Of a stretch of DNA of 64,000 nt, positions 16,545-38,451 are shown piece by piece. Below the pieces are notes generated by a model. That model was not told the DNA's origin. It saw only the letters and a list, made by a program, of their open reading frames with translations, and did not search any database. Location of the stretch: the NCBI GenBank assembly GCA_965226055.1, contig CBDDCA010000003.1:19954-83953 (forward strand), given 5' to 3'. Both the position numbers and the translations under genes were made by a program. Position 1 is the stretch's first letter. Each line of letters starts with the position of its first letter. This stretch comes from Spirochaetia bacterium. Lineage in GTDB: Bacteria > Spirochaetota > Spirochaetia > WTKD01 > G963693115.

Positions 16545-16551
16545 ATATATA

Positions 16552-21453: not shown

Positions 21454-21561
21454 TTTTTTCTGTAAAATGTTGCACATGCAGATTAAAGTATTGTAAAGTG
21501 CATTAGTATGCGATACAGCAAAAAAGAGCAGAAAAACAAAAAGGTGGAATTTCACTATCTC

Positions 21562-21603
21562 ATGTATACCTTTGGTAGCACTCAATTCAGATATTTTATG
21601 TAA
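21562..21603 (+). promoter_or_regulatory. Conserved 13-codon upstream ORF (MYTFGSTQFRYFM*), copy 1
   Basis: ATG...TAA frame conserved in three copies of the family's 5' leader module. Confidence 0.3.
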
Positions 21604-21661
21604 TTAGTACTTAAAATTGAGGATAGCAGGCTATTTTTTAAAAAAAATAGGTGTTCTGCTA

Positions 21662-21690
21662 TTGCGGTTTTTTTTTTTTTATTGTATAAT
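21662..21690 (+). promoter_or_regulatory. Putative sigma70-type promoter TTGCGG-N17-TATAAT with T13 homopolymer spacer
   Basis: -35-like hexamer at 21662-21667, T13 at 21668-21680, -10 TATAAT at 21685-21690. It lies 53 nt upstream of the SD+ATG at 21743. Confidence 0.45.
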
Positions 21691-21742
21691 ATAGCTATAT
21701 TTATAAAAAATTCAAGTATTAAATTTGAAAAAGGAGCAAAAT

Positions 21743-21915
21743 ATGAAAAAAAATCGTATATGGTTTGTTATTTTATGTTTTCAGCGATGTTTTTTAATGC
21801 TACCGCTTTTAAGCAAGATTTAGAAGCATGGGGGAAACACATAGGCAAAAAAAGAGTATTTAAGGCAAATATGTTTTATGGGAGTGGAGTAAAAACACCA
21901 CCAACATGGCATTAA
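21743..21915 (+). pseudogene. Deletion remnant of a DUF285 (BspA-like) lipoprotein gene
   Basis: SD+ATG and the signal-peptide-like start MKKNRIWFVILCF match [11 protein letters not shown] of the 29379 gene. The 3' part, in another frame, encodes ...FFNATAFKQDLEAWGKHIG...GSGVKTPPTWH, matching the C-terminus of the 29379 gene. An A8 tract sits at 21746-21753. Confidence 0.6.
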
Positions 21916-21983
21916 AATATAGAGGTAGGGATGGTAGAACTTTCTTACACTTTGAAAAAGAATAATTTTAATAGGAGGCAAAA

Positions 21984-24900
21984 ATGAAATTATTGAATAT
22001 ATCATATATATTTTTTATCGTTTTTGTGTTTTCACTTTTCACTTGTGAAAATGACAATGTAGGAAGCGGAGGAAGTAACAACGCTATTGATTTAAGTAGT
22101 GTGGCATCTCCCCCGCTAGATGTAACGAATATTACTAACAGTATTGTGAATGGTAATATTGTGTTAAAGTGGCAAGTTCCAGCCCTTACTACTAATCTTA
22201 AAAGGAAAGATGGCAAAACACTCACAAAGGCAGATATATCTTACAAAGTGTATCGAGTAGTAAAGGGAGCAAAGAGCCGAACAATAGCCCAGATTAAAAC
22301 AGTGGATAAAAAACCGATAACAGTAGCAAAGGGAACAACAAGTACAACTATAAGTAATCTTACTGGAAATACAACATACGAGATAGTAGTGCAGGCAGTA
22401 AATTCTACAGATACCACAAAAGTCTCTACAGGAGTGAGAGCAGAAGTTACTACTTTATCCTCTGCAACTGCTCCCGCAGAAGTAAGCACTATTACTGCAG
22501 GCAGTACAACGGCTAGCAGTACAGTTATATCATGGACAGCCCCAACGCTTGATACTAGCCACAAGAAAGCAGACGGCACAGCACTGACAAAGGCAGATGT
22601 GTCTTACAAAGTGTATCGAGTAGCAAAGGGAAGCGATGAGCGAACAGTAGCACAAATAAAATCAGCAGACACAAGCCCGCTAGCAGTAGCAAAGGGAACA
22701 ACAAGTACAACTATAAGTAACCTTACAGGCAGTACAACATACGAGATAGTAGTGCAGGCAGTCAATTCTACTGATGCCACAAAAGCCTCTATAGGCAAGA
22801 GAATAGAAGTTACTACTACTGTTATAATAAATCAAGCCACCGCACCCGCAGAGGCAAGCACTATTACTGCAGGCAGTACAACAGCTAGCAGTACAGTTAT
22901 ATCATGGACAGCTCCAACGCTTGATACTAGCCACAAGAAAGCAGACGGCACAGCACTGATAAAGGCAGATGTATCTTACAAAGTGTATCGAGTAGCAAAA
23001 GGAAGCGATGAGCGAACAGTGGCACAGATTAAGACAGCAGATACAAGCCCGCTAGCAGTAGCAAAGGGAACAACAAGTACAACTATAAGTAACCTTACAG
23101 GGAATACAACATACGAGATAGTAGTGCAGGCAGTAAATTCTACTGATACCACAAAAGCCTCTATAGGCAAGAGAATAGAAGTTACTACCACGAACCCTGC
23201 AACTGCCCCCGCAGAAGTAAGTGCTATTACTGCAGGCAGTACAACGGCTAGCAGTACAACGCTATCATGGACAGCCCCCACGCTTGATACTAGTCACAAG
23301 AAGGCAGACGGCACAGCACTGACAAAGGCAGATGTGTCTTACAAAGTGTATCGAGTAGCAAAAGGAAGCGATGAGCGAACAGTAGCACAGATTAAGACAG
23401 CAGACACAAGCCCGCTAGCAGTAACAAAGGGAACTATAAGCAAAACTATAAATAACCTTACAGGCAGTACAACATACGAGATAGTAGTGCAGGCAGTCAA
23501 TTCTACCGATATCACAAAAGCCTCTACAGGCAAGAGAATAGAAGTTACTACTCTAAACCCCGCAAATGCCCCAACAGAAGTAAGCACTATTACTGCAAGC
23601 AGTACAACAGCTAGCAGTACAGTTATATCATGGACAGCTCCAACGCTTACTACTAGCCATAAGAAAGCGGACGGGGGAAGGCTTACAACGGCAGATGTAT
23701 CTTACAAAATATATCGAGTAGCAAAGGGAAGCAAAGCCCGAACAGTAGCAGAGATTAAGAGAGTAGACCCGACTCCACTAAAAGTAACAAAGGGAACAAC
23801 CCGTATAACTATAACAAACCTTAATTATAATACCGCCTATGAAATAGTAGTACAAGCAGTCAATTCTACTGATACTACAAAAGTCTCTACAGGAATACGA
23901 AAAGAAGTTACTACTAATCGTATACCTAATATAGCCACCGCCCCAACAGAAGTAACCAATATCACCGCAGGCAGTACAACGGCTAGCAGTACAGTTATAT
24001 CATGGACAGCCCCCACCCTAACAAACAGTCACAAGAAAGCAAACGGACAAAATCTTACAACGGCAGATGTATCTTACAAAATATATCGGGTAGCGAAGGG
24101 AAGCGATGAGCGAACAGTAGCCCAGATTAAAACAGCAGACACGACTCCGATCGCAGTAGCAAAGGGAACAACAAGAACAACTATAAGTAACCTTACAGGA
24201 AGTACAATATACGAGATAGTAGTGCAGGCAGTCAATTCTACCGATACCACAAAAGTCTCTACAGGAGTGAGAGCAGAAGTTACTACTCTAAACCCCGCAA
24301 ATGCTCCCGCAGAAGTAAGCAATGTTACTGCTGGAAGTACTACCGATAAAAGAATAGAAGTAACATGGCAAGCACCAACGCTTACTAATGATCACAAGAA
24401 GGCAAACGGAGAAACACTAACAACGGCAGATGTATTTTATAAAGTGTATCGAGTAGCAAAAGGAAGCGATGAGCGAACAGTAGCAGAGATTAAAACAGCA
24501 GACACAAGCCCGTTAGAAGTAGCACGGGGAATAACTACTGTATTTATACCCAACCTTACAGGCAGTACAACATACGAGATAGTAGTGCAGGCAGTCAATT
24601 CTACCGATACCACAAAAGCCTCTACAGGAGTGAGAGCAGAAGTTACTACTACTAACCCTGCAAATGCTCCCGCTGAAGTAAGCAATATTACTGTAGGCAG
24701 TACAACGGCTAGCAGTACAACGCTTTCATGGACAGCCCCCACGCTTGATAATAGCCACAAAAAAGCAAACGGAGAAACACTTACAACGGCAGATGTGTCT
24801 TATAAAGTGTATCGTGTTGCAAAAGGAAAGAATGCCCGAGATGTAGCAGAGATTAAGACAGCGGATAAAAGCCCGTTAGCAGTAGCAAAGGGAACTATAA

Positions 24901-27900
24901 GCAAAACTATAAATAACCTTGCAGGCAGTACAACTTATGAGATAGTAGTACAAGCAGTCAATTCTACTGATACCACAAAAGCCTCTACAGGAGTGAGAGC
25001 AGAAGTTACTACTTTATCCTCTGCAACAGCCCCCGCAGAAGTAAGCAATGTTAGTGCAGGAAGCACAACTGCTAGCAGTACAGTTATATCATGGACAGCC
25101 CCCACGCTTGATAATAGCCATAAAAAAGCAGACGGTACAGCACTGACAAAGGCAGATGTGTCTTACAAAGTGTATCGAGTAGCAAAGGGAAGCGATGAGC
25201 GAACAGTAGCAGAGATTAAGACAGCGGATAAAAGCCCGCTAGCAGTAACAAAAGGAACTATAAGCAAAACTATAAATAACCTTACAGGCAGTACAACATA
25301 CGAGATAGTAGTGCAGGCAGTCAATTCTACCGATACCACAAAAGTCTCTACAGGCAAGAGAATAGAAGTAACAACCTCAAACCCCGCAAATGCCCCCGCA
25401 GAAGTAAGCAATGTTAGTGCAGGAAGCACAACTGCTAGCAGTACAGTTATATCATGGACAGCCCCAACGCTTGATACTAGCCACAAGAAAGCAGATGGCA
25501 CAGCACTGACAAAGGCAGATGTGTCTTACAAAGTGTATCGAGTAGCAAAGGGAAGCGATGAGCGAACAGTAGCAGAGATTAAGACAGCGGATAAAAGCCC
25601 GCTAGCAGTAACAAAAGGAACTATAAGCAAAACTATAAGTAACCTTACAGGCAGTACAACATACGAGATAGTAGTGCAGGCAGTCAATTCCACCGATACC
25701 ACAAAAGTCTCTACAGGAGTGAGAGCAGAAGTTACTACTTTATCCTCTGCAACTGCTCCCGCAGAAGTAAGCAATGTTAGTGCAGGAAGCACAACTGCTA
25801 GCAGTACAGTTATATCATGGACAGCACCAACGCTTGATACTAGCCATAAGAAAGCAGACGGCACAGCACTAACAAAGGCAGATGTGTCTTACAAAGTGTA
25901 TCGAGTAGCAAAAGGAAAGAATGCCCGAGATGTAGCAGAAATTAAGACAGCGGATAAAAGCCCGTTAGCAGTAACAAAGGGAACTATAAGCAAAACTATA
26001 AGTAACCTTACAGGCAGTACAACATACGAGATAGTAGTGCAGGCAGTCAATTCTACCGATACCACAAAAGCCTCTACAGGCAAGAGAATAGAAGTTACTA
26101 CTCTAAACCCCGCAAATGCCCCCGCAGAAGTAAGCAATGTTAGTGCAGGAAGCACAACTGCTAGCAGTACAGTTATATCATGGACAGCCCCCACGCTTGA
26201 TAATAGCCATAAAAAAGCAGACGGTACAGCACTGACAAAGGCAGATGTGTCTTACAAAGTGTATCGAGTAGCAAAGGGAAGCGATGAGCGAACAGTAGCA
26301 GAGATTAAGACAGCGGATAAAAGCCCGCTAGCAGTAACAAAAGGAACTATAAGCAAAACTATAAATAACCTTACAGGCAGTACAACATACGAGATAGTAG
26401 TACAAGCAGTAAATTCTACTGATACCACAAAAGTCTCTACAGGAGTGAGAGCAGAAGTTACTACTTTATCCTCTGCAACTGCTCCCGCAGAAGTAAGCAA
26501 TGTTAGTGCAGGAAGCACAACTGCTAGCAGTACAACAATATCATGGACAGCCCCAACGCTTGATAATAGCCACAAGAAAGCAGACGGCACAGCACTAACA
26601 AAGGCAGATGTGTCTTACAAAGTGTATCGAGTAGCAAAAGGAAAGAATGCCCGAGATGTAGCAGAGATTAAGACAGCAGATAAAAGCCCGTTAGCAGTAA
26701 CAAAAGGAACTATAAGCAAAACTATAAGTAACCTTACAGGCAGTACAACATACGAGATAGTAGTACAGGCAGTCAATTCTACCGATACCACAAAAGCCTC
26801 TACAGGCAAGAGAATAGAAGTTACTACTACCAACCCCGCAAATGCTCCCGCAGAAGTAAGCAATATTACTGCAGGCAATCTTATTGCAGGCACTCCCTAC
26901 AGCACTGGTATTACTATATCATGGACAGCCCCAACGCTTGATAATAGCCACAAGAAAGCAGATGGCACAGCACTGACAACGGCAGATGTATCTTACAAAG
27001 TGTATCGAGTGGCAGAAAGATGGAATAACCCCCGAACAGTAGCACAGATTAAAACAGCAGACACAAGCCCGCTAGAAGTAACACAGAATACAACAAGTAT
27101 AAATATAACTAATCTTGTTTTGTACGAAACATACGAGATAGTAGTGCAGGCAGTCAATTCTACCGATACCACAAAAATCTCTACAGGAATAAAGAAAAAC
27201 ATTACTCTCAATAGTAACGCCACTGATCCCGCAGAAGTAAACAATGTTACAGGAACTCCCGCTGATAAATCTGCAAGAATATCGTGGGAAGCTCCAACAC
27301 TCAAAAGCAGTCACAAAAAATCAGACGGAACACAACTAACAACGGCAGAGGTATCGTATAAGGTATATGCAGCGAGAAGGAAAAGAGATGAGTACGGAGT
27401 TTATTACAAAGAACGCACAGTAGCACAAATTATAGCAGGTGGTCACCCAATTAGTTTACCCGCAGGAACTACAAGTACGAATATTAATACTATTGCAAAA
27501 GATATAGTTTTTATACCTAAAAATAAATACGAGATAGTAGTGCAAGCAGTAAATGTCACCGATACGTCAAAAGTCTCTACAGGAGTAAGAATAGAAATAA
27601 CTACCATTTCTACTAATCACGCCACCGCCCCGCCAGACCCCCGCAGTGTTTTAAGCTATGCAGCAAAGCCATCTAATAGAGCAGTAACAATATCATGGAT
27701 AACTTCAACGCTTACTAATAATCATAAGAAACCAGACGGCACGAAATTAGCGAAAACAGATATAGATTACTATGTATATCATTTAGAAAAGGCCAGCATT
27801 TCTAAAACAGTAGAACAAATTAAAAACAGAAAGCCAATCCCTATACTAGTACTCAATGGAGCTACAAATGTAGTTATTTCTAATCTTAAGCCCAATACTA

Positions 27901-28295
27901 CCTATGAGGTAGTAGTGCAGGCAGTCAACTCTATTGATACAAGAAAAAAATCTACAGGCATACGAATAGAAGTTACTACTTTAGTAACGCTTAATGAATT
28001 AGTATTTAAGGTAAAGGGAAATAAAGTTACTTATGAATGGGTACATTACCCTGAAACTGCAAATATTGAAATAGAACAAACGCCATACGCAACAGGTAAA
28101 TATTCAATAAGTCCCAACCTCACAGCAGACACTGGACTGTCCTTTGATACAAAAACAGGCAGGATATACGGACAACCCACGAAATCGCTTAAAACCTTCA
28201 ATGCTCGTAAATACTACACAGTAAAATTTACTGCAAACGATGGACGAATAGCACGGGGTACAATTCTCTTAAAAGTAACAAGAAATAACTACTAA
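21984..28295 (+). CDS. Giant surface lipoprotein with 16 tandem FN3-like domains and a C-terminal Ig-like (He_PIG-type) domain
   Basis: 2103-aa ORF. AGGAGG SD, signal peptide and lipobox (FSLFTC). The roughly 121-aa units have an FN3-like pattern (...SWTAP...Y.VYRV...L...[11 protein letters not shown]...). The C-terminal SPNLTADTGLSFDTKTGRIYGQP pattern is typical of putative Ig domains. Confidence 0.8.
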   Translation: MKLLNISYIFFIVFVFSLFTCENDNVGSGGSNNAIDLSSVASPPLDVTNITNSIVNGNIVLKWQVPALTTNLKRKDGKTLTKADISYKVYRVVKGAKSRTIAQIKTVDKKPITVAKGTTSTTISNLTGNTTYEIVVQAVNSTDTTKVSTGVRAEVTTLSSATAPAEVSTITAGSTTASSTVISWTAPTLDTSHKKADGTALTKADVSYKVYRVAKGSDERTVAQIKSADTSPLAVAKGTTSTTISNLTGSTTYEIVVQAVNSTDATKASIGKRIEVTTTVIINQATAPAEASTITAGSTTASSTVISWTAPTLDTSHKKADGTALIKADVSYKVYRVAKGSDERTVAQIKTADTSPLAVAKGTTSTTISNLTGNTTYEIVVQAVNSTDTTKASIGKRIEVTTTNPATAPAEVSAITAGSTTASSTTLSWTAPTLDTSHKKADGTALTKADVSYKVYRVAKGSDERTVAQIKTADTSPLAVTKGTISKTINNLTGSTTYEIVVQAVNSTDITKASTGKRIEVTTLNPANAPTEVSTITASSTTASSTVISWTAPTLTTSHKKADGGRLTTADVSYKIYRVAKGSKARTVAEIKRVDPTPLKVTKGTTRITITNLNYNTAYEIVVQAVNSTDTTKVSTGIRKEVTTNRIPNIATAPTEVTNITAGSTTASSTVISWTAPTLTNSHKKANGQNLTTADVSYKIYRVAKGSDERTVAQIKTADTTPIAVAKGTTRTTISNLTGSTIYEIVVQAVNSTDTTKVSTGVRAEVTTLNPANAPAEVSNVTAGSTTDKRIEVTWQAPTLTNDHKKANGETLTTADVFYKVYRVAKGSDERTVAEIKTADTSPLEVARGITTVFIPNLTGSTTYEIVVQAVNSTDTTKASTGVRAEVTTTNPANAPAEVSNITVGSTTASSTTLSWTAPTLDNSHKKANGETLTTADVSYKVYRVAKGKNARDVAEIKTADKSPLAVAKGTISKTINNLAGSTTYEIVVQAVNSTDTTKASTGVRAEVTTLSSATAPAEVSNVSAGSTTASSTVISWTAPTLDNSHKKADGTALTKADVSYKVYRVAKGSDERTVAEIKTADKSPLAVTKGTISKTINNLTGSTTYEIVVQAVNSTDTTKVSTGKRIEVTTSNPANAPAEVSNVSAGSTTASSTVISWTAPTLDTSHKKADGTALTKADVSYKVYRVAKGSDERTVAEIKTADKSPLAVTKGTISKTISNLTGSTTYEIVVQAVNSTDTTKVSTGVRAEVTTLSSATAPAEVSNVSAGSTTASSTVISWTAPTLDTSHKKADGTALTKADVSYKVYRVAKGKNARDVAEIKTADKSPLAVTKGTISKTISNLTGSTTYEIVVQAVNSTDTTKASTGKRIEVTTLNPANAPAEVSNVSAGSTTASSTVISWTAPTLDNSHKKADGTALTKADVSYKVYRVAKGSDERTVAEIKTADKSPLAVTKGTISKTINNLTGSTTYEIVVQAVNSTDTTKVSTGVRAEVTTLSSATAPAEVSNVSAGSTTASSTTISWTAPTLDNSHKKADGTALTKADVSYKVYRVAKGKNARDVAEIKTADKSPLAVTKGTISKTISNLTGSTTYEIVVQAVNSTDTTKASTGKRIEVTTTNPANAPAEVSNITAGNLIAGTPYSTGITISWTAPTLDNSHKKADGTALTTADVSYKVYRVAERWNNPRTVAQIKTADTSPLEVTQNTTSINITNLVLYETYEIVVQAVNSTDTTKISTGIKKNITLNSNATDPAEVNNVTGTPADKSARISWEAPTLKSSHKKSDGTQLTTAEVSYKVYAARRKRDEYGVYYKERTVAQIIAGGHPISLPAGTTSTNINTIAKDIVFIPKNKYEIVVQAVNVTDTSKVSTGVRIEITTISTNHATAPPDPRSVLSYAAKPSNRAVTISWITSTLTNNHKKPDGTKLAKTDIDYYVYHLEKASISKTVEQIKNRKPIPILVLNGATNVVISNLKPNTTYEVVVQAVNSIDTRKKSTGIRIEVTTLVTLNELVFKVKGNKVTYEWVHYPETANIEIEQTPYATGKYSISPNLTADTGLSFDTKTGRIYGQPTKSLKTFNARKYYTVKFTANDGRIARGTILLKVTRNNY
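22095..27985 (+). repeat. Tandem 363-bp coding repeats (16 units)
   Basis: The period is visible in both protein and DNA. The central units (about 24960-26830) share stretches of more than 200 nt of perfect identity, for example 25098-25315 versus 26187-26404. Confidence 0.9.
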
Positions 28296-28451
28296 TACAT
28301 ATATATTGTATATAATTAAGTAGTGTAATGATGGTAGAATTTGTATATTTTTCTCCTAATAAATGCAGATATTAGAGTATAATTTTTTCTATCATCTTTA
28401 CACTTTGAAAAAGAATAATTTTTGAATAGGAGGCTGCAATGAAATTATTGA

Positions 28452-29018
28452 ATGGTATCATATTATATTTTTATCGTTCTTGTGTTTTTACTGTTTACTT
28501 GCGAAGGCAACAAGGTAGGTAGCACTAAAGGTAACCCTGCCACCGCACCGCCAGAGGCAAGCAGTGTTACAGGAAGTCCCACCGATAACAGTGTAAGGGT
28601 ATCATGGACAGCTCCAACGCTTGATAATAATCATAAGACAGCAGACACAAGCCCGCTAGCAGTAGCAAAGGGAACAACAAGTATAAATATAACTAATCTT
28701 ACAACTACTACCACCTATGAAGTAGTAGTACAGGCAGTCAATGCAACAGATACCACAAAAGTCTCTACAGGAATAAAAACAGAAGTAACTACTCTTAGTT
28801 CTCTTAATTTAGTTTTGAAGAAAGGCAGTACTATAGAAACAGAAGTAAACATAAGGATAAATTCTGTTGGTGTTAATGTTCGTTCAATAGTAACACCGAA
28901 TGTAAGTGGTACATTTTTTATTTCTCCTAATTTAACGAAAAATACTGGAATTTTATTTAATACTAATACTGGCATACTATCGGGGTTAGTACATTTAAGT
29001 AGTATTTTACTATATTGA
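28452..29018 (+). pseudogene. Degraded mini-paralog of the FN3 lipoprotein family
   Basis: The 188-aa ORF retains a lipobox (LLFTC), one internally deleted FN3 unit and a truncated Ig-like tail. The SD-proximal ATG (28439) is out of frame because of a 1-nt indel relative to the 21984 gene. Confidence 0.55.
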
Positions 29019-29050
29019 TATGATTAAATATATGGTACTTTAGTATTACC

Positions 29051-29089
29051 TTTAGTAGACACAGCATTATTTATGCTGTGTCTACTAAA
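29051..29089 (+). terminator. 16-bp perfect stem hairpin downstream of an FN3-family gene (putative terminator)
   Basis: TTTAGTAGACACAGCA-TTATTTA-TGCTGTGTCTACTAAA. There is no clear U-tract. An identical copy is at 38195-38233. Confidence 0.45.
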
Positions 29090-29197
29090 TTACCGAAAGC
29101 AAAAGAGCTAATTTTTATAAAATCGGTAAGTATTTATTGCAGGTACATATAAAATAACTTCTACTAAGCATATTTGAGAAAGGAGTTTTGTTATCTC

Positions 29198-29239
29198 ATG
29201 TATACCTTTGGTAGCACTCAATTCAGATATTTTATGTAA
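29198..29239 (+). promoter_or_regulatory. Conserved 13-codon upstream ORF (MYTFGSTQFRYFM*), copy 2
   Basis: AAAGGAG lies 12 nt upstream of the ATG. Same frame and stop as copies 1 and 3. Confidence 0.3.
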
Positions 29240-29296
29240 TTAGTACTTAAAATTGAGAATAGAAGGCCATCTCTTTAAAAAAACAGGTGTTTTGGT

Positions 29297-29325
29297 ATTG
29301 CGTTTTTTTGTATTTCTTTGTATAT
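29297..29325 (+). promoter_or_regulatory. Putative promoter TTGCGT-N17-TATATT with interrupted T-tract (T7)
   Basis: Homologous position to the T13 and T15 promoters. Here the spacer reads TTTTTTGTATTTCTTTG. Confidence 0.4.
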
Positions 29326-29378
29326 TATATCTATCTTTATTCAAAATTCAAGCGTTAAGTTTGAAAAAGGAGAAAAAT

Positions 29379-31190
29379 ATGAAAACAAATCATATATATT
29401 TTATTATTTTTAGTGTTTTTATTATTTTGATAAGTGCTTGTGAAGCTGAGATTCCGACTATTGATAACAGTAGGAATGATGCTTCCTCTGCGACTGCACC
29501 AGCAGAGGCAAGCAATGTTACAGGAAGCCCAACCAATACAAGTGCAAGTATATCCTGGCAAGCCCCAACGCTTACAAGCAGTCATAAGAAAGCAGACGGA
29601 ACACAGCTGACAAAGGCAGATGTATCTTACAAAGTATACCGAGTAGCAAAAGGAGCAAAGAGCCGAACAATAGCACAGATTAAAGAAGCGGACACGAAAC
29701 CGATTGAAGTAGCAAAGGGAACAACAAGCACAAGTATAACTAATCTTACTAGAAGTACGACCTATGAAATAGTAGTACAAGCAGTCAATGCCACCGACCC
29801 CACAAAAGTCTCTACAGGTATACGAATAGAAGTAACTACACTTGCCACAAATCAAGCAACAGCACCAGCAGACGTCCGTGTTGTTACAGGAAGCCGCTCT
29901 ACTGATACCAGTACATTGATAAGATGGCTACCCCCAACGCTTGATACTAGCCACAAGAAAGCAGACGGCACAGCACTGACAAAGGCAGATGTATCTTACA
30001 AAGTGTATCGAGTAGCAAAGGGAAGTGATGAGCGAACAGTAGCAGAGATTAAGACAGCAGACACAAGCCCGTTAGCAGTAACAAAGGGAACAACAAGTAC
30101 AACTATAAGTAACCTTACAGGAAATACAACATACGAGATAGTAGTACAAGCAGTCAATTCCACTGCCCCCACAAAAGTCTCTACAGGCATACGAATAGAA
30201 ATAACTACCCTTGCCTCTATTAGCATGAGAGCAAAGCAACAAGGAAGCAGCAGTACATTTACTACTTTGTCAGCAACAGCACAAGGAAAAGACGGAACAA
30301 CAGAAATTACTCCTATTGTAATGGAAGTAACGCCCAGTAGTGTAGTAAGCAGTGGTACATTTTCAATCAGCCCCAGCCTAACAGAAAATACAGGCATTTC
30401 TTTCAATACCAGCAACGGCACAATATCAGGGGTAGCGAAATATATACAGAGTGAAACTACTTATACAATAACCTTTACAGCGACAGACCGCAGAACAGCA
30501 CAGACCACTATTGATATTACTGTAGTGGGAAAATATAGCCCGAAAAGTAGAGCCGATTTAATTACACTAATACAGGATATAATGGACACCGATGACAACG
30601 GGAAAATAGATGATATTGACCCCGACTTAAACATTATTGATACAAGTAATATTACAGATATGACCAAATTATTTAGCACGAGAACAAAATTACATGTATT
30701 TAATGGGGATATATCAAAATGGGATGTAAGTAATGTAACTACTATGTTTACCATGTTTGCCAGTAATAAGGTATTTAATGGGGATATATCAAACTGGAAT
30801 GTAAGTAAAGTAACCGATATGGACGGGATGTTTAATAATGCTATAAAGTTTAATGGGGATATATCAAACTGGAAAGTAGGGAAAGTAACGAATATGGACA
30901 GGATGTTTTTTAATGCAACAGCATTTAATGGTGACATATCAAAATGGGATGTAAGCAAAGTAACGGATATGAGCCTTATGTTTCATCAAGCCTCTGCATT
31001 TAATAAGGATATATCAGACTGGAATGTAGAGAGTGTAACCAATATGTTTGGAATGTTTAATCTAGCGACTTCATTTACTAAAGATTTAGAAGCATGGGGG
31101 GAACATATAGGGGATAGTGTAGATATGTCCTTAATGTTTGATGGCAGTGGAGTAAAGACAACGCCTTCATGGTATAAAAGTGGAAATTAA
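29379..31190 (+). CDS. Surface lipoprotein: 2 FN3-like units + Ig-like domain + C-terminal DUF285 (BspA-like) repeats
   Basis: AAGGAG SD plus ATG at 29379 ([21 protein letters not shown] lipobox); the track ORF start 29253 reads through the leader. Five to six repeats of about 25 aa, FNGDISxW(D/N)VSxVTxMxxMF, are typical of DUF285. Confidence 0.8.
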
Positions 31191-31368
31191 AGTATAGTAA
31201 ACTTGTGTAGGGATGAGAAATATAAAATCTTTATTATATTACTAATGCAGATGTTTGTTATTCTTATCTTTTCAATCATCCCTACACTTTAGTAAGTTTA
31301 TATAAGATGAGAAAACTGTTATTACTATTACAAATTGAGCATATTTGAGAAAGGAGTTTTGCTATCTC

Positions 31369-31410
31369 GTGTATACCTTTGGTAAAACTCCATTCAGATA
31401 TTTTATGTAA
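31369..31410 (+). promoter_or_regulatory. Conserved 13-codon upstream ORF (GTG start, (M)YTFGKTPFRYFM*), copy 3
   Basis: Same length, frame and stop as the other copies. Two codons differ, both nonsynonymous. Confidence 0.3.
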
Positions 31411-31467
31411 ATAGCACTTAAAATTGAGAATAAAAGGCTATTTTTTAAGAAAATAGGTGTTTTGCTA

Positions 31468-31498
31468 TTGCGGTTTTTTTTTTTTTTTGTTGTATAAT
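31468..31498 (+). promoter_or_regulatory. Putative promoter TTGCGG-N19-TATAAT with T15 homopolymer spacer
   Basis: -35-like hexamer at 31468-31473, T15 at 31474-31488, -10 TATAAT at 31493-31498. It lies upstream of the SD+ATG at 31550. Confidence 0.45.
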
Positions 31499-31549
31499 AA
31501 TATATCTGCATCTAAAATGCAAGTATTAAGTTTGAAAAAGGAGTAAAAT

Positions 31550-34500
31550 ATGAAAATAAACCATATATATTTTATTGTTTTTAGTGTTTTTATTATTTTG
31601 ATAAGTGCTTGTGAAGCTGATATCTCGACTAGCTCTAGTAGTGGGGGGAGTACACTATCTTCTGCAACTGCACCATTAGAGGTAAGCAATGTTACAGGAA
31701 ATCCTACCGACAGAAGTATTATATTGAAGTGGCAAGCCCCAACGCTTACAAGCAGTCATAAGAAAGCAGACGGAACACAGCTAACAAAGGCAGATGTATC
31801 GCATAAGGTTTTTATAGTAGAAAAAGGATCACAGAGCCGAACAGTAGAGAATATTATAGCTTTAGATAAATCGCCTATTGAGGTAAAAAAAGGAATAGTA
31901 ACAGTAAATATAAATGATCGAAAGCCCAATACCACCTATGAAATAGTAGTACAAGCGGTCAATTCTACCGATACCACAAAAGTCTCTAAAGGAATGAGAG
32001 TAGAAGTGACTACCCTTACCACTGATCACGCAACAGCACCTCCAGAAGCAAGCGATGTTACAGGAAGTCCTATCGATACAAGTGCAAGAATAACATGGCA
32101 AGCCCCAAATCTTACCGATAGCCATAAGAAAGCAGATGGCACAGCACTCACAACGGCAGATGTATCGTACAAAGTGTATCGGGTAGCAAAGGGAAGCGAT
32201 GAGCGAACAGTAGCAGAGATTAAGACAGCAGATAAGACTCCGCTTGAAGTAGCAAAAGGAACGACAAGTATAAATATAACTAACCTTAATAAAAATACTG
32301 CTTATGAAGTAGTAGTACAATCAGTCAATTCCACCGATACCACAAAAGTCTCTACAGGAGTAAGAATAGAAGTAACTACCCTTGCACAGAATCATGCAAC
32401 CGCACCAGCAGATGCAAGCAGTGTTGCAGGAAGCCCAGACAATGACAGTGTAGCGGTATCATGGCAAGCCCCAAATCTTACCGATAGCCATAAGAAAGCA
32501 GACGGCACACAACTCACAACGGCAGATGTATCTTACAAAGTATACCGAGTAGCAAAGGGAAGCGATGAGCGAACAGTAGCAGAGATTAAAACAGCAGACA
32601 CGACACCGATTGAAGTAGCAAAAGGAACAACAAGCACAACTATAAATAATCTTATTGGAAGTACTACCTATGAAATAGTAGTACAAGCAGTCAATTCCAC
32701 CGACTCTACAAAAGCCTCTACAGGCATACGAATAGAAGTAGCTACCACGAACCCCGCCACTGCACCAGCAGACGCCCGCAGTGTTGCAGGAAGCCCAGCC
32801 GATACCAGCGCAAGAATAACATGGCAAGCGCCAGCGCTTACAGGCAGTCATAAAAAAGCAAACGGACAAAGACTCACAGAGGCAGATGTATCTTACAAAG
32901 TATACCGAGTAGTAAAGGGAAACGGTGTCCGAACAGTAGCAGCGATTAAAACAGCAGATAATAACCCGCTAGCAGTAGCAAAGGGAACAACAAGTACAAA
33001 TATAACCAGTCTTACCCCTGCTACCACCTATGAAATAGTGGTACAAGCAGTCAATTCCACCGATACCACAAAAGTCTCTACAGGCAAACGAATAGAAGTA
33101 ACTACCCTTGCAAATAATCACGCAACAGCACCAGCAGACGCAAGCAGTGTTGTAGGAAGCCCAGCCGATGACAGTGTAGGGGTATCATGGCAAGCCCCAG
33201 CCTTTACAAGTAGTCATAAGAAAGCAGACGGAACACAACTCACAAAGGCAGATGTATATTACAAAGTATACCGAGTAGTAAAGGGAGCAAAGAGCAGAAC
33301 AATAGCAGAGATTAAAGAAGCAGACAAGACCCCGATGGAAGTAGCAAAGGGAACAACAAGCACAACTATAACTAATCTTACAGGAAGTACCACCTATGAA
33401 ATAGTAGTACAAGCAGTCAATTCCACCGACTCTACAAAAGCCTCTACAGGCATACGAATAGAAGTAGCTACCACGAACCCCGCCACTGCACCAGCAGACG
33501 CCCGCAGTGTTACCGCAGGAAGCACGACAGCCTCAAGTACAACTTTATCGTGGACAGATCCAACGCTTACTACTAGCCACAAGAAAGCAAATGGACAAAG
33601 ACTCACAACGGCAGATGTATCGTACAAAGTATATCGTGTAGCAAAAGGAAGGAATGCTCGAACAATAGCAGAGATTAAAACAGCAGATGGGACACCGCTA
33701 GCAGTAGCAAAGGGAACAAAAAGCACAACTATAACTAATCTTACAGGAAGTACTACCTATGAAATAGTAGTACAAGCAATCAACTCCACCGATACTACAA
33801 AAGTCTCTACAGGAGTGAGAATAGAAGTGACTACCACGAACCCTGCCACCGCGCCAGCAGATGCAAGCAGTGTTGCAGGAAATCCAACTGATGACAGTGT
33901 AGCGGTATCATGGACAGCCCCAGCTCTTACAAGCAGTCACAAGAAAGCAGATGGAACGAAACTCACAAAGGCAGATGTATCTTACAAAGTATATCGAGTA
34001 GCAAAGAATGGAGCAAACACTCGATCAATAGCACAGATTATAACAGCAGACAAGACCCCGCTTGAAGTAGTAAAAGGAACAACAAGTGCAACTATAACTA
34101 ATCTTACCCCTAGTACCACCTATGAAATAGTAGTACAAGCGATCAATTCTACCGATACCACAAAAACCTCTACAGGAGTAAGAATAGAAGTAACTACCGA
34201 TAACCTTGCCACCGCACCAGCAGAGGCAAGTAGTGTTACAGGAAGCCCAACCGATACTAGTGCAAGAATAACATGGCAAGCTCCAACGCTTACTACTAGC
34301 CATAAGAAAGCAGACGGACAAAGACTCACAACGGCAGATGTATCTTACAAAGTGTATCGAGTAGCAAAAGGAAGCGATGCCCGAACAATAGCAGAGATTA
34401 AAACAGCAGATAAGAACCCGCTAGCAGTAGCAAGGGGAACAACAAGCACAACTATAACCAGTCTTACCCCTAATACCACCTATGAAATAGTAGTACAAGC

Positions 34501-37500
34501 AGTCAATTTTACCGATACTACAAAAGTCTCTACAGGCAAACGAATAGAAGTAACTACCGTTGCACAGAATCATGCAACAGCACCAGCAGACGCAAGCAAT
34601 GTGAGAGGAATCCCAGACGATGACAGTATAGCGGTATCATGGCAAGCCCCAACGCTTACCGATAGCCACAAGAAACCAGACGGAACACAACTAACACAGG
34701 CAGATGTATACTACAAAGTATATCGTGCAGTAAAAGGAGCAAAGAGCCGAACAATAGCAGAGATTAAAACAGCAGATAAGACTCCGATAGCAGTAGCAAA
34801 AGGAATAACAAGTACAACTATAACTAATCTTACAGGAAGTACTACCTATGAAGTAGTGGTACAAGCAGTCAATTTCATCGATACTACAAAAGCCTCTACA
34901 GGCATACGAATAGAAGTAGTCACCACTAACCCCGCCACTGCACCAGCGGACGCAAGCAATGTGAGAGGAAGCTCTACCGATACAAGTGCAAGAATAACAT
35001 GGCAAGCCCCAGCACTTGATACTAGCCACAAAAAAGCAAACGGACAAAGCCTCACCACAGCAGATGTATCGTACAAAGTGTATCGGGTAGCAAAAGGAAA
35101 GAATGCTCGAACTATAGCAGCGATTAAAACAGCAGATAAGAACCCGATAGCAGTAGCAAAAGGAAAAACAAACACAAGTATAACTAATCTTACCCCTATT
35201 ACCACCTATGAAATAGTAGTGCAGGCAGTTAATACAACAGATATAACAAAAGCCTCTACAGGAGTGAGAATAGAAGTGACTACCAAGAACTCAGCAACCG
35301 CACCGTCAGAGGCAAGCAGTATTACAGGAAGCCTAAACGATGATGGGAGTGTAACGGTATCATGGACAGCCCCCACGCTTACAAGCAGTCACAAGAAAGC
35401 AAACGGACAAGCACTCACAAAAGCAGATGTATCGTACAAAGTGTATCGTGTAGAAAGGGGGGGGCGATTCAGAACAGTAGCAGCGATTAAAGCAGCAGAT
35501 CCGAACCCGCTAGCAGTAGGAAAAGGAACAACAAGTATAAATATAACTAATCTTAAGTCTAATGCTACCTATGAAGTAGTAGTGCAAGCAATCAATTCCA
35601 CCGATACCACAAAAGTCTCTACAGGAGTCAAAGAATTTGTATTTGTCACTAATCGTGCCACCGCACCGCCAGACATATCTAGTGTGGTGACAGGTAAAAC
35701 TGATAACAGCATAACACTAAACTGGTCAATTTTGCCTAGAGATAGTCATCAAAAGAGAAACGGACAAAGACTCACAGCGTCAGATATATCTTATAAAGTA
35801 TATCGTGTAGTAAAGGGAGCAAAGAGCCGAACAATAGCAGCGATTAAAGCAGCAGATAGGACCCCGCTAGCAGTAGCAAAGGGAACAACAAGTATAAATA
35901 TAACTAATCTTAATGAAAATACCACCTATGAAATAGTAGTACAAGCAGTCAATTCCACTGATACCACAAAAGTCTCTACAGGAGAAAAAGTAGAACTAAC
36001 TACCACTAATAATGCCACTGCACCGCCAGATGCTCGTAGTGTTACAGGAAGCCCAATCGATGACAGTATAACGGTATCATGGACAGCTCCAGATCTTACA
36101 AGCAGTCACAAAAAAACAGACGGACAAGCACTCACAGCGGCAGATGTATTGTATAAAGTATATCATATAGCAAAAGGAAAGGATGCCCGAACAATAGCAG
36201 AGATTAAAGCAGCAGATAAGAACCCGCTAGCAGTAGCAAAAGGAACAACAAGCACAACTATAACTAATCTTACTGGAAGTACTACCTATGAAATAGTAGT
36301 ACAAGCAGTCAATTCCACCGCTATTGCAAAAGTCTCTACAGGAGTAAGAATAGAAGTAACTACCACTAACTTAGCAACCGCACCAGCAGACGTCCGCGAT
36401 GTTACCGCAGAAAGTCTTATTGATACCAGTGCAACTATATCATGGAAAGATCCTGTTCTTACTAATAGTCACAAGAAATCAGACGGACAAACACTCACAA
36501 CGGCAGATGTATCGTATAAAGTGTATCGTGTGGTAAAGGGAGGCAGTGCCCGAACAATAGCAGCGATTAAAGCAGCAGATAATAACCCGCTAGCAGTAGC
36601 AAAGGGAATAACAAATACAAATATAACTAATCTTACCCATAATACTACCTATGAAGTAGTAGTACAAGCAGTCAATTCCACCGCTATTGCAAAAGTCTCT
36701 ACAGGAGTAAGAGTAGAAGTAACTACCACTAATAATGCCACCGCACCGCCAGATGCTCGCAGTGTTACAGTAGTAAGATCAACTGATGACAGTGTAGAGA
36801 TATCATGGCAAGCCCCAAATCTTACTGCTAGTCACAAGAAAACAAACGGGCAAAGGCTTACAGAGGCAGATGTATCGTACAAAGTATATCGTGTAACAAA
36901 GGGAAAGAATGCCCGATCAATAGCAGCGATTAAAACAGCAGATAATAACCCGATAGCAGTAGCAAAGGGAACAACAAGTACAACTATAACTAATCTTACA
37001 TTTAGTACCACCTATGAAATAGTAGTACAGGCAGTCAATGCAACATATACCACAAAAGTCTCTACAGGAATAAAAACAGAAGTAACTACTGTGTCCTATG
37101 CAACCGAACCAGCAGATGCCCGCAATGTTACCGCAGCAAGTATTACCAATAAAGCTGTAAAGGTATCATGGCAAGTCCCAGATATTACCGATAGTCACAA
37201 GAAACCAGACGGAACACAACTAACACAGGCAGATGTATCGTATAAGGTATATCATGTAGCAAAAAAGGGAACAAAGAAACGAACAGTAGCAGAGATTATA
37301 GCAGCAGATACTAGCCCGATAGAAGAAGCAGCAGTAGCAAAAGGAACGACAAGCACAAATGTAGATATAACTAATCTTACATTTAATACCACCTATGAAA
37401 TAGTAGTACAAGCAATCAATACAACAGATACTACAAAAGTTTCTACAGGGGTAAGAGTAGAAGTAATTGCTAACCCAGCAACAGCTCCCCCAGAGGTAAA

Positions 37501-38146
37501 TAATATTGTAAAAGACCCTACAGATATCAATATAGAACTAGAGTGGACAGCTCCCACGCTTACAAGCAGTCACAAAAAAACAGACGGACAAGCATTAACA
37601 AAGGCAGATCTATCCTACAAAATTTACGCTTTAGAAAAAGGAGCAAGAAGCCGATCAATAGCAGCAATTAAAGCAACAGGTTTTATTCACGAATTACTAA
37701 AAGGATTAACAGTTGCAAATATATCTTTACTTCTTAGTGCTGATAAAGACGTACCCTTGAAGCCTAACACTACCTATGAAATAGTAATACAGGCAGTCAA
37801 TTCCACCGATCCCACAAAAGTCTCTACAGGCAAACGAATAGAAGTAACTACTCTTAGTTCTCTTAATTTAGTTATGAAGAGAGGCAATACTATAGTAACA
37901 AACTTACACATAAAGGTAGATTCTGTTGGTGTTAATATTCGTTCAGTAGTAACACCGAGTGTAAGTGGTATATTTTTTATTACTCCTGATTTAACGCAAA
38001 ATACTGGAATTTTATTTAATACTAATACTGGCGTACTATCGGGGAAAGCAAAAAAACTTGCATCAAAGAAAACATATACAATAGTCTTTACTGCATCAGA
38101 TGGACGATTAGCACGTACTTCTTTTAGTGTTAGTACATTTAGGTAG
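31550..38146 (+). CDS. Giant surface lipoprotein with 17 tandem FN3-like domains and a C-terminal Ig-like (He_PIG-type) domain
   Basis: 2198-aa ORF with signal peptide and lipobox (ILISAC). Seventeen units of about 121 aa, more diverged from one another than in the 21984 gene. The C-terminal motif is TPDLTQNTGILFNTNTGVLSG. Confidence 0.8.
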   Translation: MKINHIYFIVFSVFIILISACEADISTSSSSGGSTLSSATAPLEVSNVTGNPTDRSIILKWQAPTLTSSHKKADGTQLTKADVSHKVFIVEKGSQSRTVENIIALDKSPIEVKKGIVTVNINDRKPNTTYEIVVQAVNSTDTTKVSKGMRVEVTTLTTDHATAPPEASDVTGSPIDTSARITWQAPNLTDSHKKADGTALTTADVSYKVYRVAKGSDERTVAEIKTADKTPLEVAKGTTSINITNLNKNTAYEVVVQSVNSTDTTKVSTGVRIEVTTLAQNHATAPADASSVAGSPDNDSVAVSWQAPNLTDSHKKADGTQLTTADVSYKVYRVAKGSDERTVAEIKTADTTPIEVAKGTTSTTINNLIGSTTYEIVVQAVNSTDSTKASTGIRIEVATTNPATAPADARSVAGSPADTSARITWQAPALTGSHKKANGQRLTEADVSYKVYRVVKGNGVRTVAAIKTADNNPLAVAKGTTSTNITSLTPATTYEIVVQAVNSTDTTKVSTGKRIEVTTLANNHATAPADASSVVGSPADDSVGVSWQAPAFTSSHKKADGTQLTKADVYYKVYRVVKGAKSRTIAEIKEADKTPMEVAKGTTSTTITNLTGSTTYEIVVQAVNSTDSTKASTGIRIEVATTNPATAPADARSVTAGSTTASSTTLSWTDPTLTTSHKKANGQRLTTADVSYKVYRVAKGRNARTIAEIKTADGTPLAVAKGTKSTTITNLTGSTTYEIVVQAINSTDTTKVSTGVRIEVTTTNPATAPADASSVAGNPTDDSVAVSWTAPALTSSHKKADGTKLTKADVSYKVYRVAKNGANTRSIAQIITADKTPLEVVKGTTSATITNLTPSTTYEIVVQAINSTDTTKTSTGVRIEVTTDNLATAPAEASSVTGSPTDTSARITWQAPTLTTSHKKADGQRLTTADVSYKVYRVAKGSDARTIAEIKTADKNPLAVARGTTSTTITSLTPNTTYEIVVQAVNFTDTTKVSTGKRIEVTTVAQNHATAPADASNVRGIPDDDSIAVSWQAPTLTDSHKKPDGTQLTQADVYYKVYRAVKGAKSRTIAEIKTADKTPIAVAKGITSTTITNLTGSTTYEVVVQAVNFIDTTKASTGIRIEVVTTNPATAPADASNVRGSSTDTSARITWQAPALDTSHKKANGQSLTTADVSYKVYRVAKGKNARTIAAIKTADKNPIAVAKGKTNTSITNLTPITTYEIVVQAVNTTDITKASTGVRIEVTTKNSATAPSEASSITGSLNDDGSVTVSWTAPTLTSSHKKANGQALTKADVSYKVYRVERGGRFRTVAAIKAADPNPLAVGKGTTSINITNLKSNATYEVVVQAINSTDTTKVSTGVKEFVFVTNRATAPPDISSVVTGKTDNSITLNWSILPRDSHQKRNGQRLTASDISYKVYRVVKGAKSRTIAAIKAADRTPLAVAKGTTSINITNLNENTTYEIVVQAVNSTDTTKVSTGEKVELTTTNNATAPPDARSVTGSPIDDSITVSWTAPDLTSSHKKTDGQALTAADVLYKVYHIAKGKDARTIAEIKAADKNPLAVAKGTTSTTITNLTGSTTYEIVVQAVNSTAIAKVSTGVRIEVTTTNLATAPADVRDVTAESLIDTSATISWKDPVLTNSHKKSDGQTLTTADVSYKVYRVVKGGSARTIAAIKAADNNPLAVAKGITNTNITNLTHNTTYEVVVQAVNSTAIAKVSTGVRVEVTTTNNATAPPDARSVTVVRSTDDSVEISWQAPNLTASHKKTNGQRLTEADVSYKVYRVTKGKNARSIAAIKTADNNPIAVAKGTTSTTITNLTFSTTYEIVVQAVNATYTTKVSTGIKTEVTTVSYATEPADARNVTAASITNKAVKVSWQVPDITDSHKKPDGTQLTQADVSYKVYHVAKKGTKKRTVAEIIAADTSPIEEAAVAKGTTSTNVDITNLTFNTTYEIVVQAINTTDTTKVSTGVRVEVIANPATAPPEVNNIVKDPTDINIELEWTAPTLTSSHKKTDGQALTKADLSYKIYALEKGARSRSIAAIKATGFIHELLKGLTVANISLLLSADKDVPLKPNTTYEIVIQAVNSTDPTKVSTGKRIEVTTLSSLNLVMKRGNTIVTNLHIKVDSVGVNIRSVVTPSVSGIFFITPDLTQNTGILFNTNTGVLSGKAKKLASKKTYTIVFTASDGRLARTSFSVSTFR
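31658..37855 (+). repeat. Tandem ~363-bp coding repeats (17 units)
   Basis: The recurring ATAP(A/P)(D/E)...SW(Q/T)AP...YKVYRV...[14 protein letters not shown]...EVTT pattern has a period of about 121 aa. Confidence 0.85.
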
Positions 38147-38194
38147 TATTTTACTATATTGATATGATTACATATATGGTACTTTAGTATTACC

Positions 38195-38233
38195 TTTAGT
38201 AGACACAGCATTATTTATGCTGTGTCTACTAAA
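38195..38233 (+). terminator. 16-bp perfect stem hairpin (second copy), putative terminator
   Basis: Identical sequence to 29051-29089. It is followed by the same 3' module, which breaks off near 38355. Confidence 0.45.
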
Positions 38234-38451
38234 TTACCGAAAGCAAAAGAGCTAACTTTTACAAAATCGGTAAGTATTTATTGTAGGTACATATAAAATA
38301 ACTCCTACTAAGCATATTTGAGAAAGGAGTTTTGCTATCTCGTGTATACCTTTGTTAAAAGTACAAAAATAAAAAGGAGAGTTATATATTGTGTAAGTCT
38401 ATGATATACTATGTATAGTATTATTGAAAAAATAAGGAGTGAGAAACAGGT

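Follow-up and report, generated by a model that had tools for sequence, protein, structure and literature searches.

The DNA analysed here (the window) is a 64-kb stretch of an uncultured Spirochaetia genome with a G+C content of ~34% (32–37% outside the FN3 arrays). Between 21.5 and 38.4 kb it carries an island of five paralogs of a lipoprotein family, all on the + strand: two giant genes built of FN3 units, one gene combining two FN3 units with an Ig-like and a DUF285/PARCEL domain, and two decayed remnants. The island lies between a 149-aa DUF4468 lipoprotein gene on one side and yebC-ruvCAB on the other, and genes for BamA, TamB, and Skp follow downstream in the window. An initial annotation of the same DNA had proposed five family members on one strand, and all five were recovered in order as remnant 1, giant A, remnant A, the FN3 + DUF285 gene, and giant B. 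For comparison, the closest public genome was used, the 2.36-Mb circular chromosome OZ244590.1 (“MAG: Spirochaetia bacterium”; MAG, metagenome-assembled genome), which is probably the one independent sister genome among the DNA compared and contains the complete syntenic locus (L061). Exact look-ups of the window's YebC and of the proteins P0002 and P0057 retrieved no record.

Giant A (21984..28295, + strand) encodes 2103 residues that begin with a type-A signal peptide (lipobox-like LFTC), continue through 16 FN3 units, and end in a He_PIG-like Ig domain. Giant B (31550..38146, +) encodes 2198 residues, in which 17 FN3 units stand between a type-B lipoprotein signal and a He_PIG-like Ig domain at the C-terminus. 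Motif counting returned exactly the 16 and 17 units first proposed for the giants, along with two units in the FN3 + DUF285 gene and a single, internally deleted unit in remnant A. The common plan of these proteins is a type-A or type-B lipoprotein signal, followed by 1–17 FN3 units and an Ig-like (He_PIG) domain; some members carry a DUF285/PARCEL repeat domain at the far end, which both giants of the window are without. Lipoboxes were called by reading the sequences against the pattern [LVI][ASTVI][GAS]C. The type-B N-terminus (MK.NHIYF...ILISAC) contains the canonical lipobox ISAC, and the type-A N-terminus (MKLLN...VFSLFTC) has a non-canonical T at position −1 that fits looser spirochete lipobox rules only.

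A period of 363 nt runs across both giants (Tandem Repeats Finder), corresponding to a unit of 121 aa. The Pfam family fn3 (PF00041) matches giant A with an E value of 6e-69 over 14 stretches (229 bits vs. a cutoff of 25) and giant B with an E value of 3e-91 over 16 stretches (300 bits vs. the same cutoff of 25). Structural modelling of the repeat had been put forward as the check on this assignment, and an AlphaFold2 model of one unit (predicted local distance difference test, pLDDT, 97.5) is a seven-strand beta-sandwich whose top 50 matches in the PDB are all FN3 domains, with target-normalised TM-scores of up to 0.81; the fold is that of FN3. What the model adds to it is a helix (residues 64–70) and a long B–C insertion bearing a conserved SHKKADG motif. 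The units group by gene, a pattern of concerted evolution. Within giant A, units 2–4 and 9–13 share 91–98% DNA identity over 300 nt and are thus well suited to unequal recombination, while the units of giant B are 62–89% identical to one another. Entropy along the unit was 0.96 bits in the loops vs. 1.02 bits in the strands and gave no clear signal of selection confined to the loops. The 121-aa unit is seldom encountered: searching 1.84 billion representative proteins with its profile returned 366 hits at E ≤ 0.001, 23 of them at E ≤ 1e-30, and in the JGI metagenomes neither a profile scan with the FN3 unit nor an exact scan with the module pattern found relatives or a match, respectively. The lineage itself is rare. 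The units (21984–38146) are also very rich in Thr and Ser and contain several conserved N-x-S/T motifs (NLT, NST, NIT), and glycosylation of the FN3 stalk is conceivable from this composition.

The FN3 + DUF285 gene (29379..31190, +) encodes 603 residues with a type-B lipoprotein signal (ISAC), two FN3 units, a He_PIG Ig-like domain, a helix, and DUF285/PARCEL repeats. The latter are tandem repeats of ~25 aa matched by PF03382 (E = 8e-60) and TIGR02167 (E = 7e-26, 5 stretches). All of these parts are seen in a model of the protein (pLDDT 86), namely two FN3 domains, an Ig-like sandwich, a helix, and the DUF285/PARCEL repeat domain; a fold search with the whole model retrieved mostly FN3 arrays and left the DUF285 fold unassigned. 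The gene is a mosaic, with a giant-B-like unit 1 and a giant-A-like unit 2. Both remnants are deletion derivatives, in line with the initial annotation. In remnant 1 (21743..21915, +) a type-B beginning, made up of the start codon (ATGA8TC) and the first ~35 nt, is joined out of frame to the last DUF285 repeat, the only one that is left, and the remnant derives by deletion from the ortholog of a 657-aa gene (FN3 + Ig + DUF285) that stands first at the same position in OZ244590.1. Remnant A, together with the type-A 5′ module in front of it, occupies 28398..29018 (+). Its MKLLN start at 28439 is frameshifted (open reading frame, ORF, 28439/28452–29018), and it retains one FN3 unit with a 36-aa internal deletion and a truncated C-terminus of the giant B type. 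It also contains a stretch 92% identical to unit 15 of giant B. The paralogs are mosaics.

The genes are set between repeated 5′ and 3′ modules. The type-B 5′ module is found in three full copies (21546–21774, 29167–29410, and 31338–31581) that are 84–87% identical, and the type-A 5′ module in two (21945–22013 and 28398–28470) that are 89% identical. The two 5′ ends had been described as interchangeable, and types A and B do each occur on giants and on FN3 + DUF285 bodies in the two genomes compared. Copy 1 of the type-A module (21945..21983, +; CACTTTGAAAAAGAATAATTTT-AATAGGAGG) has a mostly deleted inverted-repeat (IR) element just before it, at ~21924–21947. On the 3′ side, the block at 28985–29213 recurs at 38129–38357 with 96% identity and runs on into the next module. 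Its two 3′ modules (copy 1, 28985..29166, +; copy 2, 38129..38310, +) each contain a hairpin (29051–29089 and 38195–38233, respectively) with a perfect 17-bp stem and a folding energy of −26 kcal/mol (z −8.3), measured on the copy at 38185–38245. A different, imperfect IR hairpin element of 83 nt lies at 31205..31287 (+), with perfect 12-bp outer stems GTGTAGGGATGA/TCATCCCTACAC (−25.7 kcal/mol, z −5.1), and its type-A variant is situated downstream of giant A (28320..28403, +; RNA fold −25.1 kcal/mol, z −5.6). In ~180 kb of sampled DNA, the GTAGGGATGA...TCATCCCTAC IR element was found only after stop codons of family genes. The 3′ hairpin module that the members were thought to share is confirmed as a 96% identical block present twice, but there are two different 3′ hairpin elements and not one. 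A repeated block of DUF285 gene, IR element, and type-A gene had also been proposed; at 31.3 kb, however, the IR element precedes a type-B gene. A known RNA element in the modules was considered and discarded, as an Rfam search with them gave sub-threshold chance hits only.

Type-B units follow a fixed order of a relic of an insertion sequence (mini-IS), a small palindrome, a sigma-70-like putative promoter whose spacer is largely a T tract, a Shine–Dalgarno (SD) sequence, and the gene, with a stable 3′ hairpin behind it. The tract of each type-B module sits between conserved TTGNNN and TATAAT-like hexamers, ~50–60 nt upstream of the start codon. Copy 1 of the promoter and 5′ untranslated region (21586..21742, +) has its palindrome at 21631–21650 and TTGCGG-T13ATTG-TATAAT at 21662–21690 (spacer 17 nt), followed by the SD sequence; copy 2 (29222..29378, +) has an interrupted T tract and reads TTGCGT-N17-TATATT at 29298–29326; copy 3 (31393..31549, +) has its palindrome at 31438–31456 and TTGCGG-T15GTTG-TATAAT at 31468–31498 (spacer 19 nt). 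The T13 (21668–21680) and T15 (31474–31488) tracts are the sole homopolymers of at least 10 bases in the 64 kb, and the homopolymer tracts noted by the initial annotation are hence real and placed where slippage would alter promoter spacing. The spacers were surveyed in 12 type-B module copies from the two genomes, of which 11 keep both hexamers and one has lost the −35 region. Interrupted tracts have a 17-nt spacer in 4/4 copies. Among the seven copies with uninterrupted T13–15 tracts, the spacer is 17 nt in four, 18 nt in two, and 19 nt in one, the promoter of giant B, so that departures from 17 nt are confined to uninterrupted tracts. Positional orthologs differ in the state of the tract (T13 vs. 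T15; interrupted vs. T14; T15 vs. interrupted). The tract has features of a simple sequence repeat (SSR) contingency locus, being of a slippage-prone kind, lying at a length-sensitive site of the presumed promoter, and differing in assembled length among paralogs and strains.

The poly-T run is not the tail of an intrinsic terminator, because the sequence before it folds no better than shuffled sequences (z −0.19). A palindrome of the form CTATTTT-N5/6-AAAATAG stands ~10 nt upstream of the −35 hexamer in nearly all type-B modules of both genomes, with a degenerate copy at 29267–29286, and from its sequence could be the operator for a shared regulator. A further tract, G8 (35457–35464), lies inside unit 11 of giant B, where a slip of +/−1 would lead to a stop at about residue 1310 and leave a 10-unit stalk without the C-terminal Ig-like head. 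Outside the window, a G18 tract is found in OZ244590.1 (L063, 23897–24060) a few codons past the start of a giant FN3/DUF285-type lipoprotein gene. In the assembly this gene is not in frame; a tract of G16 or G19 would bring back its signal peptide together with an LVGC lipobox. A G14 tract sits likewise a few codons past the start of an FN3/LRR/Kelch lipoprotein gene in a related species (L065, 12045–12160; ERZ25073789). By their sequences, both genes look like classical frameshift-type contingency genes, and since these G tracts lie in the 5′ coding regions of other lipoprotein genes of the lineage, it appears to use homopolymer contingency tracts.

A mini-IS precedes each type-B promoter. 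The element is 41 bp long and consists of a full left terminal inverted repeat (TIR), TTTG, and a 12-nt right tip. The TIR pattern has four matches in the window (21546, 29182, 31353, and 38326) against 0 expected, which correspond to copies w1 (21545..21585, +; a relic left TIR with a degenerate right tip), w2 (29181..29221, +; a TIR pattern match), w3 (31352..31392, +; the full 27-nt left TIR and the 12-nt right tip), and w4 (38325..38365, +). Copy w4 forms the right boundary of the array and ends in the IS right tip ...AAAAGTACA; it had been taken for a last 5′ module cut off at about 38355, whereas it is a complete 41-bp mini-IS, and a closing mini-IS likewise ends two other family loci in the sister genome. 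The mini-IS segment of the type-B modules had been read as an upstream ORF (uORF). An alignment of seven full module copies drawn from both genomes shows the start codon replaced by ATA in one copy of the sister genome and a frameshift with a stop in another, so that no peptide is conserved. Control by a uORF or leader peptide was ruled out on this loss of the ORF in 2/7 copies; the segment is the relic of an IS481-like TIR.

An intact IS is present in OZ244590.1 (L063, 8687–9902). It is 1.2 kb long, encodes a 359-aa HTH + rve transposase, and has ~27-bp TIRs and a 15-bp target-site duplication (TSD), AAAAATAGGTATTTT. It interrupts the type-B promoter module ahead of gene P0004, in the conserved palindrome region and immediately before the −35 hexamer. 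The best NCBIfam match of the transposase is transpos_IS481 (E = 7e-31, covering 2–281 of 284 positions), with 108 bits against a cutoff of 224, and in Pfam HTH_23 and HTH_28 scored above and rve below their cutoffs. In the window, a 13-bp direct repeat abuts the outer tips of the terminal mini-IS copies, with the left copy AAAAACAAAAAGG at 21532..21544 (+) and the right copy AAAAATAAAAAGG at 38365..38377 (+), directly right of the last mini-IS. Allowing up to one mismatch and searching both strands, the 13-mer AAAAACAAAAAGG occurs in the 64-kb window only at 21532 and 38365, and it looks like a target-site duplication bounding the whole 16.8-kb array. Elsewhere in the sister genome, the single-gene locus of P0003 (L060, 9672–9780 and 15230–16762) adjoins a tRNA-like gene, as judged by eye, and then carries a fragment of an IS481-like element and an IS1595-family transposase gene.

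Comparison with OZ244590.1 revealed a conserved setting around a variable island. The flanks share 94–96% DNA identity (dN 0.00–0.02, dS 0.11–0.22, dN/dS 0.00–0.16). Between the same anchor genes the sister island carries FN3 + Ig + DUF285 genes of 657 and 412 aa together with a pair of type-B giants (1951 and 1955 aa, each with 15 FN3 units). Type-A genes are absent from this locus, and its right-hand mini-element has been lost by deletion. At the protein level, giant B shares 69% identity with its positional homolog (dN 0.218, dS 0.375, dN/dS 0.58), the two having 17 and 15 units, respectively. A second pair, P0002 (apparently from the window's own genome) and P0004, shares the same C-terminal type at 79% identity with 17 vs. 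15 motif matches and probably represents orthologs at another locus, although strict orthology of the 17-vs.-15 pairs is uncertain because they are only 69–79% identical. Family genes occupy at least four dispersed loci in OZ244590.1, and type-A heads sit there on an FN3x2 + DUF285 body, which indicates that heads, stalks, and tails have been reassorted. The initial annotation had held that an invariant locus would speak against a variable repertoire; in the two genomes gene content, repeat number, and tract state all differ. In the relatives whose YebC is 86% and 72% identical, no such island was found upstream of yebC. The lineage has dozens of ~1500-aa FN3 + DUF285 paralogs per genome. In the relative with 86% YebC identity, a gene of >4219 aa (L065, 12045–20732; FN3 + LRR_5 + Kelch beta-propeller, with the G14 tract) lies between ruvC and the rest of the ruv operon, suggesting that the yebC–ruv neighbourhood repeatedly attracts giant surface-protein genes. 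The sole hint of a habitat comes from a sequencing run of a sea star that contains the more distant of these relatives (YebC 72% identical; PMC7699681).

We consider it probable that this locus is an accessory island encoding a family of stalk-like surface lipoproteins subject to phase variation in expression and to variation in size, comparable to the Vlp/Vmc systems of Mycoplasma. The proposal builds on the observed anatomy and folds, on the variability between genomes, and on the differences in tract length among paralogs and orthologs. The giant lipoproteins are most likely displayed on the surface, where they may serve in adhesion or shielding. Slipped-strand changes in the uninterrupted T13–T15 tracts would shift the spacer off the optimal 17 nt and turn single paralogs down or off independently of each other, resulting in combinatorial phase variation within a population. 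With its 19-nt spacer as assembled, giant B would be expressed weakly or not at all, and promoter copy 1 (17-nt spacer) probably reads into giant A, since the deletion in remnant 1 also took most of the IR hairpin. Stalk length would be altered by recombination between the 363-nt units (up to 98% identical), while recombination among the shared 5′/3′ modules and mini-IS copies would duplicate, delete, and reassort heads, stalks, and tails and so give rise to the remnants and the differences between genomes. The initial annotation had seen in the locus a recombining, switchable repertoire. In part this holds, as the family is indeed paralogous, mosaic, and hypervariable between genomes, while switching within a population is a candidate property and “antigenic” variation directed against adaptive immunity is not established.

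Several points weigh against this proposal. Many spirochete lipoproteins are periplasmic. The variation in tract length and repeat number is known from comparisons between paralogs and between two genomes, and the tract lengths come from long-read MAG assemblies (14x for OZ244590.1) in which homopolymer calls may err by at least 1 base; a contig from a low-coverage sample (L062, 2.15x) was excluded from the tract and frame arguments. The −35 hexamers are weak (TTGCGG, TTGCAT, TTGATT). A generic scan for promoters and terminators gave no more hits than shuffled sequences and did not call the proposed type-B promoters, which it missed because the −35 hexamer matches at only 3–4/6 positions. The module copies are not independent evidence, as their common 17-nt spacer is inherited by descent. 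The raised dS of giant B and its homolog points to paralog exchange as much as to selection, and the gene-wide dN/dS of 0.58 is below 1. Type-A genes lack a recognisable own promoter, with no convincing −35/−10 pair found inside the IR variant, and that they are co-transcribed with the upstream gene is a guess. In the vpma promoter of M. agalactiae, finally, a T tract next to the −10 hexamer plays no part in switching (PMC2268961).

These reservations are shared by a rival explanation, which we find doubtful: the genes would encode ordinary fast-evolving, adhesin-like or periplasmic lipoproteins without programmed switching, the T tract being an AT-rich spacer or an UP-like element, the differences in its length slow drift or assembly error, and the variation a product of duplication, deletion, and paralog exchange over evolutionary time. 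The uncalled promoter sites, the uncertain homopolymer lengths of MAGs, and the M. agalactiae tract all fit it, as does the 17-nt spacer in 8/11 copies with both hexamers, and the differences between genomes need evolutionary turnover only. It accounts less well for uninterrupted T13–15 runs that are the only long homopolymers in 64 kb and are kept at one promoter position in many paralogs, or for the restriction of spacer deviations to such runs. Without slippage switching, it is also difficult to account for the G14–G18 tracts in the 5′ coding regions of sister families, one of which is out of frame. A stronger contender, possible though still short of probable in our judgment, treats the array as cargo in an IS481-like transposon frame, whose IS ends (through a transposase acting in trans or as portable homology) drive plasticity and spread without any expression switch. 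It draws on the mini-IS before every type-B promoter and closing the arrays at three loci, on the intact IS with matching TIRs and a 15-bp TSD inside one OZ244590.1 module, and on the window-unique 13-bp direct repeat exactly at the outer TIR tips; the dispersal of family genes over at least four sister-genome loci and the lack of an island upstream of yebC in the relatives with 86% and 72% YebC identity agree with it. However, inspection by eye showed no flanking repeat at the other loci examined, the inner mini-IS copies all have one orientation and truncated right tips, no transposase gene lies within the window, and the sister genome has lost its right terminal copy by deletion, implying that the island is now fixed there. 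Moreover, a mobile frame explains origin and reshuffling and is compatible with phase variation and with the explanation we favour.

The two mechanisms may also be combined, and we regard as unlikely a two-tier system of surface variation in which cassettes bounded by IS481 TIRs (mini-IS, poly-T promoter, gene, and 3′ hairpin) use the mini-IS as portable recombination or transposition sites in addition to homopolymer switches, poly-T in promoters and poly-G at the coding starts of sister families. The mini-IS ends would then let whole cassettes duplicate, swap between dispersed loci, and insert as arrays, the last step being suggested by the 13-bp target duplication around the 16.8-kb array. 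The setting would be a host-associated spirochete lineage with a reduced genome and probably no encounter with adaptive immunity. Of all elements of the locus, the IS-framed cassette architecture was the least expected. Very improbable, by comparison, is classical recombinational antigenic variation, whether by gene conversion from silent copies (vlsE, tprK, pilE) or by a promoter moved by an invertase (Vsp, Vpma, Vsa). Partial copies do adjoin full genes here, the units are mosaic (the 603-aa gene is B-like and then A-like; remnant A has a type-A head and a giant-B-like tail), and dS is raised between positional homologs. Yet each intact gene has its own promoter, SD sequence, start codon, and signal peptide, and the only partial copies are two remnants, decayed pseudogenes with frameshifts and deletions that have kept their 5′ ends. 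A single expression site with promoterless silent cassettes was looked for, and three type-B promoters with SD, ATG, and signal peptide were found instead. An adjacent recombinase with inverted sites or genes was sought as well: all genes lie on one strand, no inverted repeats of at least 40 nt were found, and there is no recombinase gene in or beside the locus. With neither a recombinase gene nor an inverted gene orientation, an invertase switch is unlikely.

Two gene clusters elsewhere in the window lie apart from the island. A defence island spans 42–10803 and comprises a Type III restriction res gene (42–2888), a Fic/DOC gene (2885–3958), GmrSD (6690–8357), and an AAA_13 ATPase (8587–10803). 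Its Type III-like N6/N4 methylase is split into two overlapping ORFs (4788–5858 and 5819–6670) with the overlap near an A6 run, and the split could mark this mod gene either as a pseudogene disrupted by a frameshift or as a phase-variable methylase. Upstream of the lipoprotein island, at 14438–17553, three tandem paralogous SnoaL-like genes (368, 350, and 333 aa) stand beside an ABC sugar-type transporter, a cluster that is also kept in OZ244590.1.

The closest known systems are Vlp of M. hyorhinis, Vmm/Vmc of the M. mycoides cluster, and maa2 of M. arthritidis, which like the present locus consist of clustered paralogous lipoprotein genes with a conserved promoter and signal-peptide block ahead of divergent tandem-repeat bodies. 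They also have a homopolymer or short repeat in the −35/−10 spacer where slippage alters spacing, and transcription of vlp, maa2, and vmm in mycoplasmas is switched by such changes in spacer length (PMC2268961). Variation in size through repeat number and independent control of each gene, allowing combinatorial expression, complete the likeness. Unlike these systems, the host here is a diderm spirochete and not a mollicute, the tract is poly-T, and switching is a putative feature; the proteins are 600–2200 aa long and made of folded 121-aa FN3 units in place of short low-complexity repeats, and the expression units are bounded by IS481-like TIR relics. The PARCEL/DUF285 lipoproteins of Mollicutes, some of which have 5′ homopolymer contingency tracts (Roske et al. 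2010, PMC2996958; TIGR02167, NF045896), share their repeats with the 603-aa gene and several paralogs and are likewise lipoproteins. In the spirochete family, by contrast, the domain sits at the tip of an FN3 stalk and an Ig-like domain, and the giants of the window are without PARCEL repeats.

Stalks of variable length made from high-identity DNA repeats have been described as Periscope proteins (Whelan et al. 2021, PMC8201768). These and other fibrillar adhesins resemble the giants in that DNA repeats of very high identity (98% over 300 nt in giant A) encode a long tandem array of folded domains, the stalk carries a non-repeat domain at its anchor-distal end, and the repeat number varies, here 17 vs. 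15 between genomes. The anchor of the spirochete proteins, however, is an N-terminal lipid and not an LPXTG or type 1 secretion signal, the repeats of giant B are only 62–89% identical, and the variation in length observed is between genomes as opposed to isolates of one strain. Among spirochetes, LigA and LigB of Leptospira are adhesin lipoproteins with an N-terminal lipobox and a long tandem Ig-like array, to which LigB adds a distinct C-terminal domain. They differ from the present family in being built of Big_2 and not FN3 domains, are not known to form a multigene cluster with homopolymer promoters, and have no known sequence relationship to it. In T. pallidum, poly-G tracts near the tpr promoters modulate transcription of paralogous surface-protein candidates. 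There the poly-G lies upstream of the transcription start, as opposed to poly-T in a spacer, and Tpr proteins are beta-barrel/MOSP proteins and not FN3 lipoproteins. The vls locus of Borrelia and tprK of T. pallidum are, like this island, fast-evolving spirochete surface-protein loci with partial copies beside a full gene, but they combine one expression site with ordered promoterless silent cassettes, whereas complete expression units and decayed pseudogenes are found here. To our knowledge, the spirochete precedents vls, vmp, tprK, and tpr all work differently. Repertoires of SSRs in T. pallidum have been mentioned in the literature (PMC11868660).

Apart from its role in the cell, the 121-aa FN3 variant, very rare in public data and with a fold predicted at high confidence, may interest protein engineers. 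The locus is also a clear case of IS ends framing surface-protein cassettes. The favoured explanation leads to a prediction for each gene, whereby a promoter with a 17-nt spacer would be on and one with an 18–19-nt spacer weak or off. If it is true, the mycoplasma-style design of variable lipoproteins, in which a slippage-prone promoter and signal block is joined to a repeat body, would extend to an uncultured spirochete lineage, with proteins far larger than those of mycoplasmas and built of folded domains. Should the lineage be a symbiont of invertebrates, the selection acting on such variation would be in question in a setting without antibodies, and phage, innate recognition by the host, and control of adhesion distance would be the candidates.

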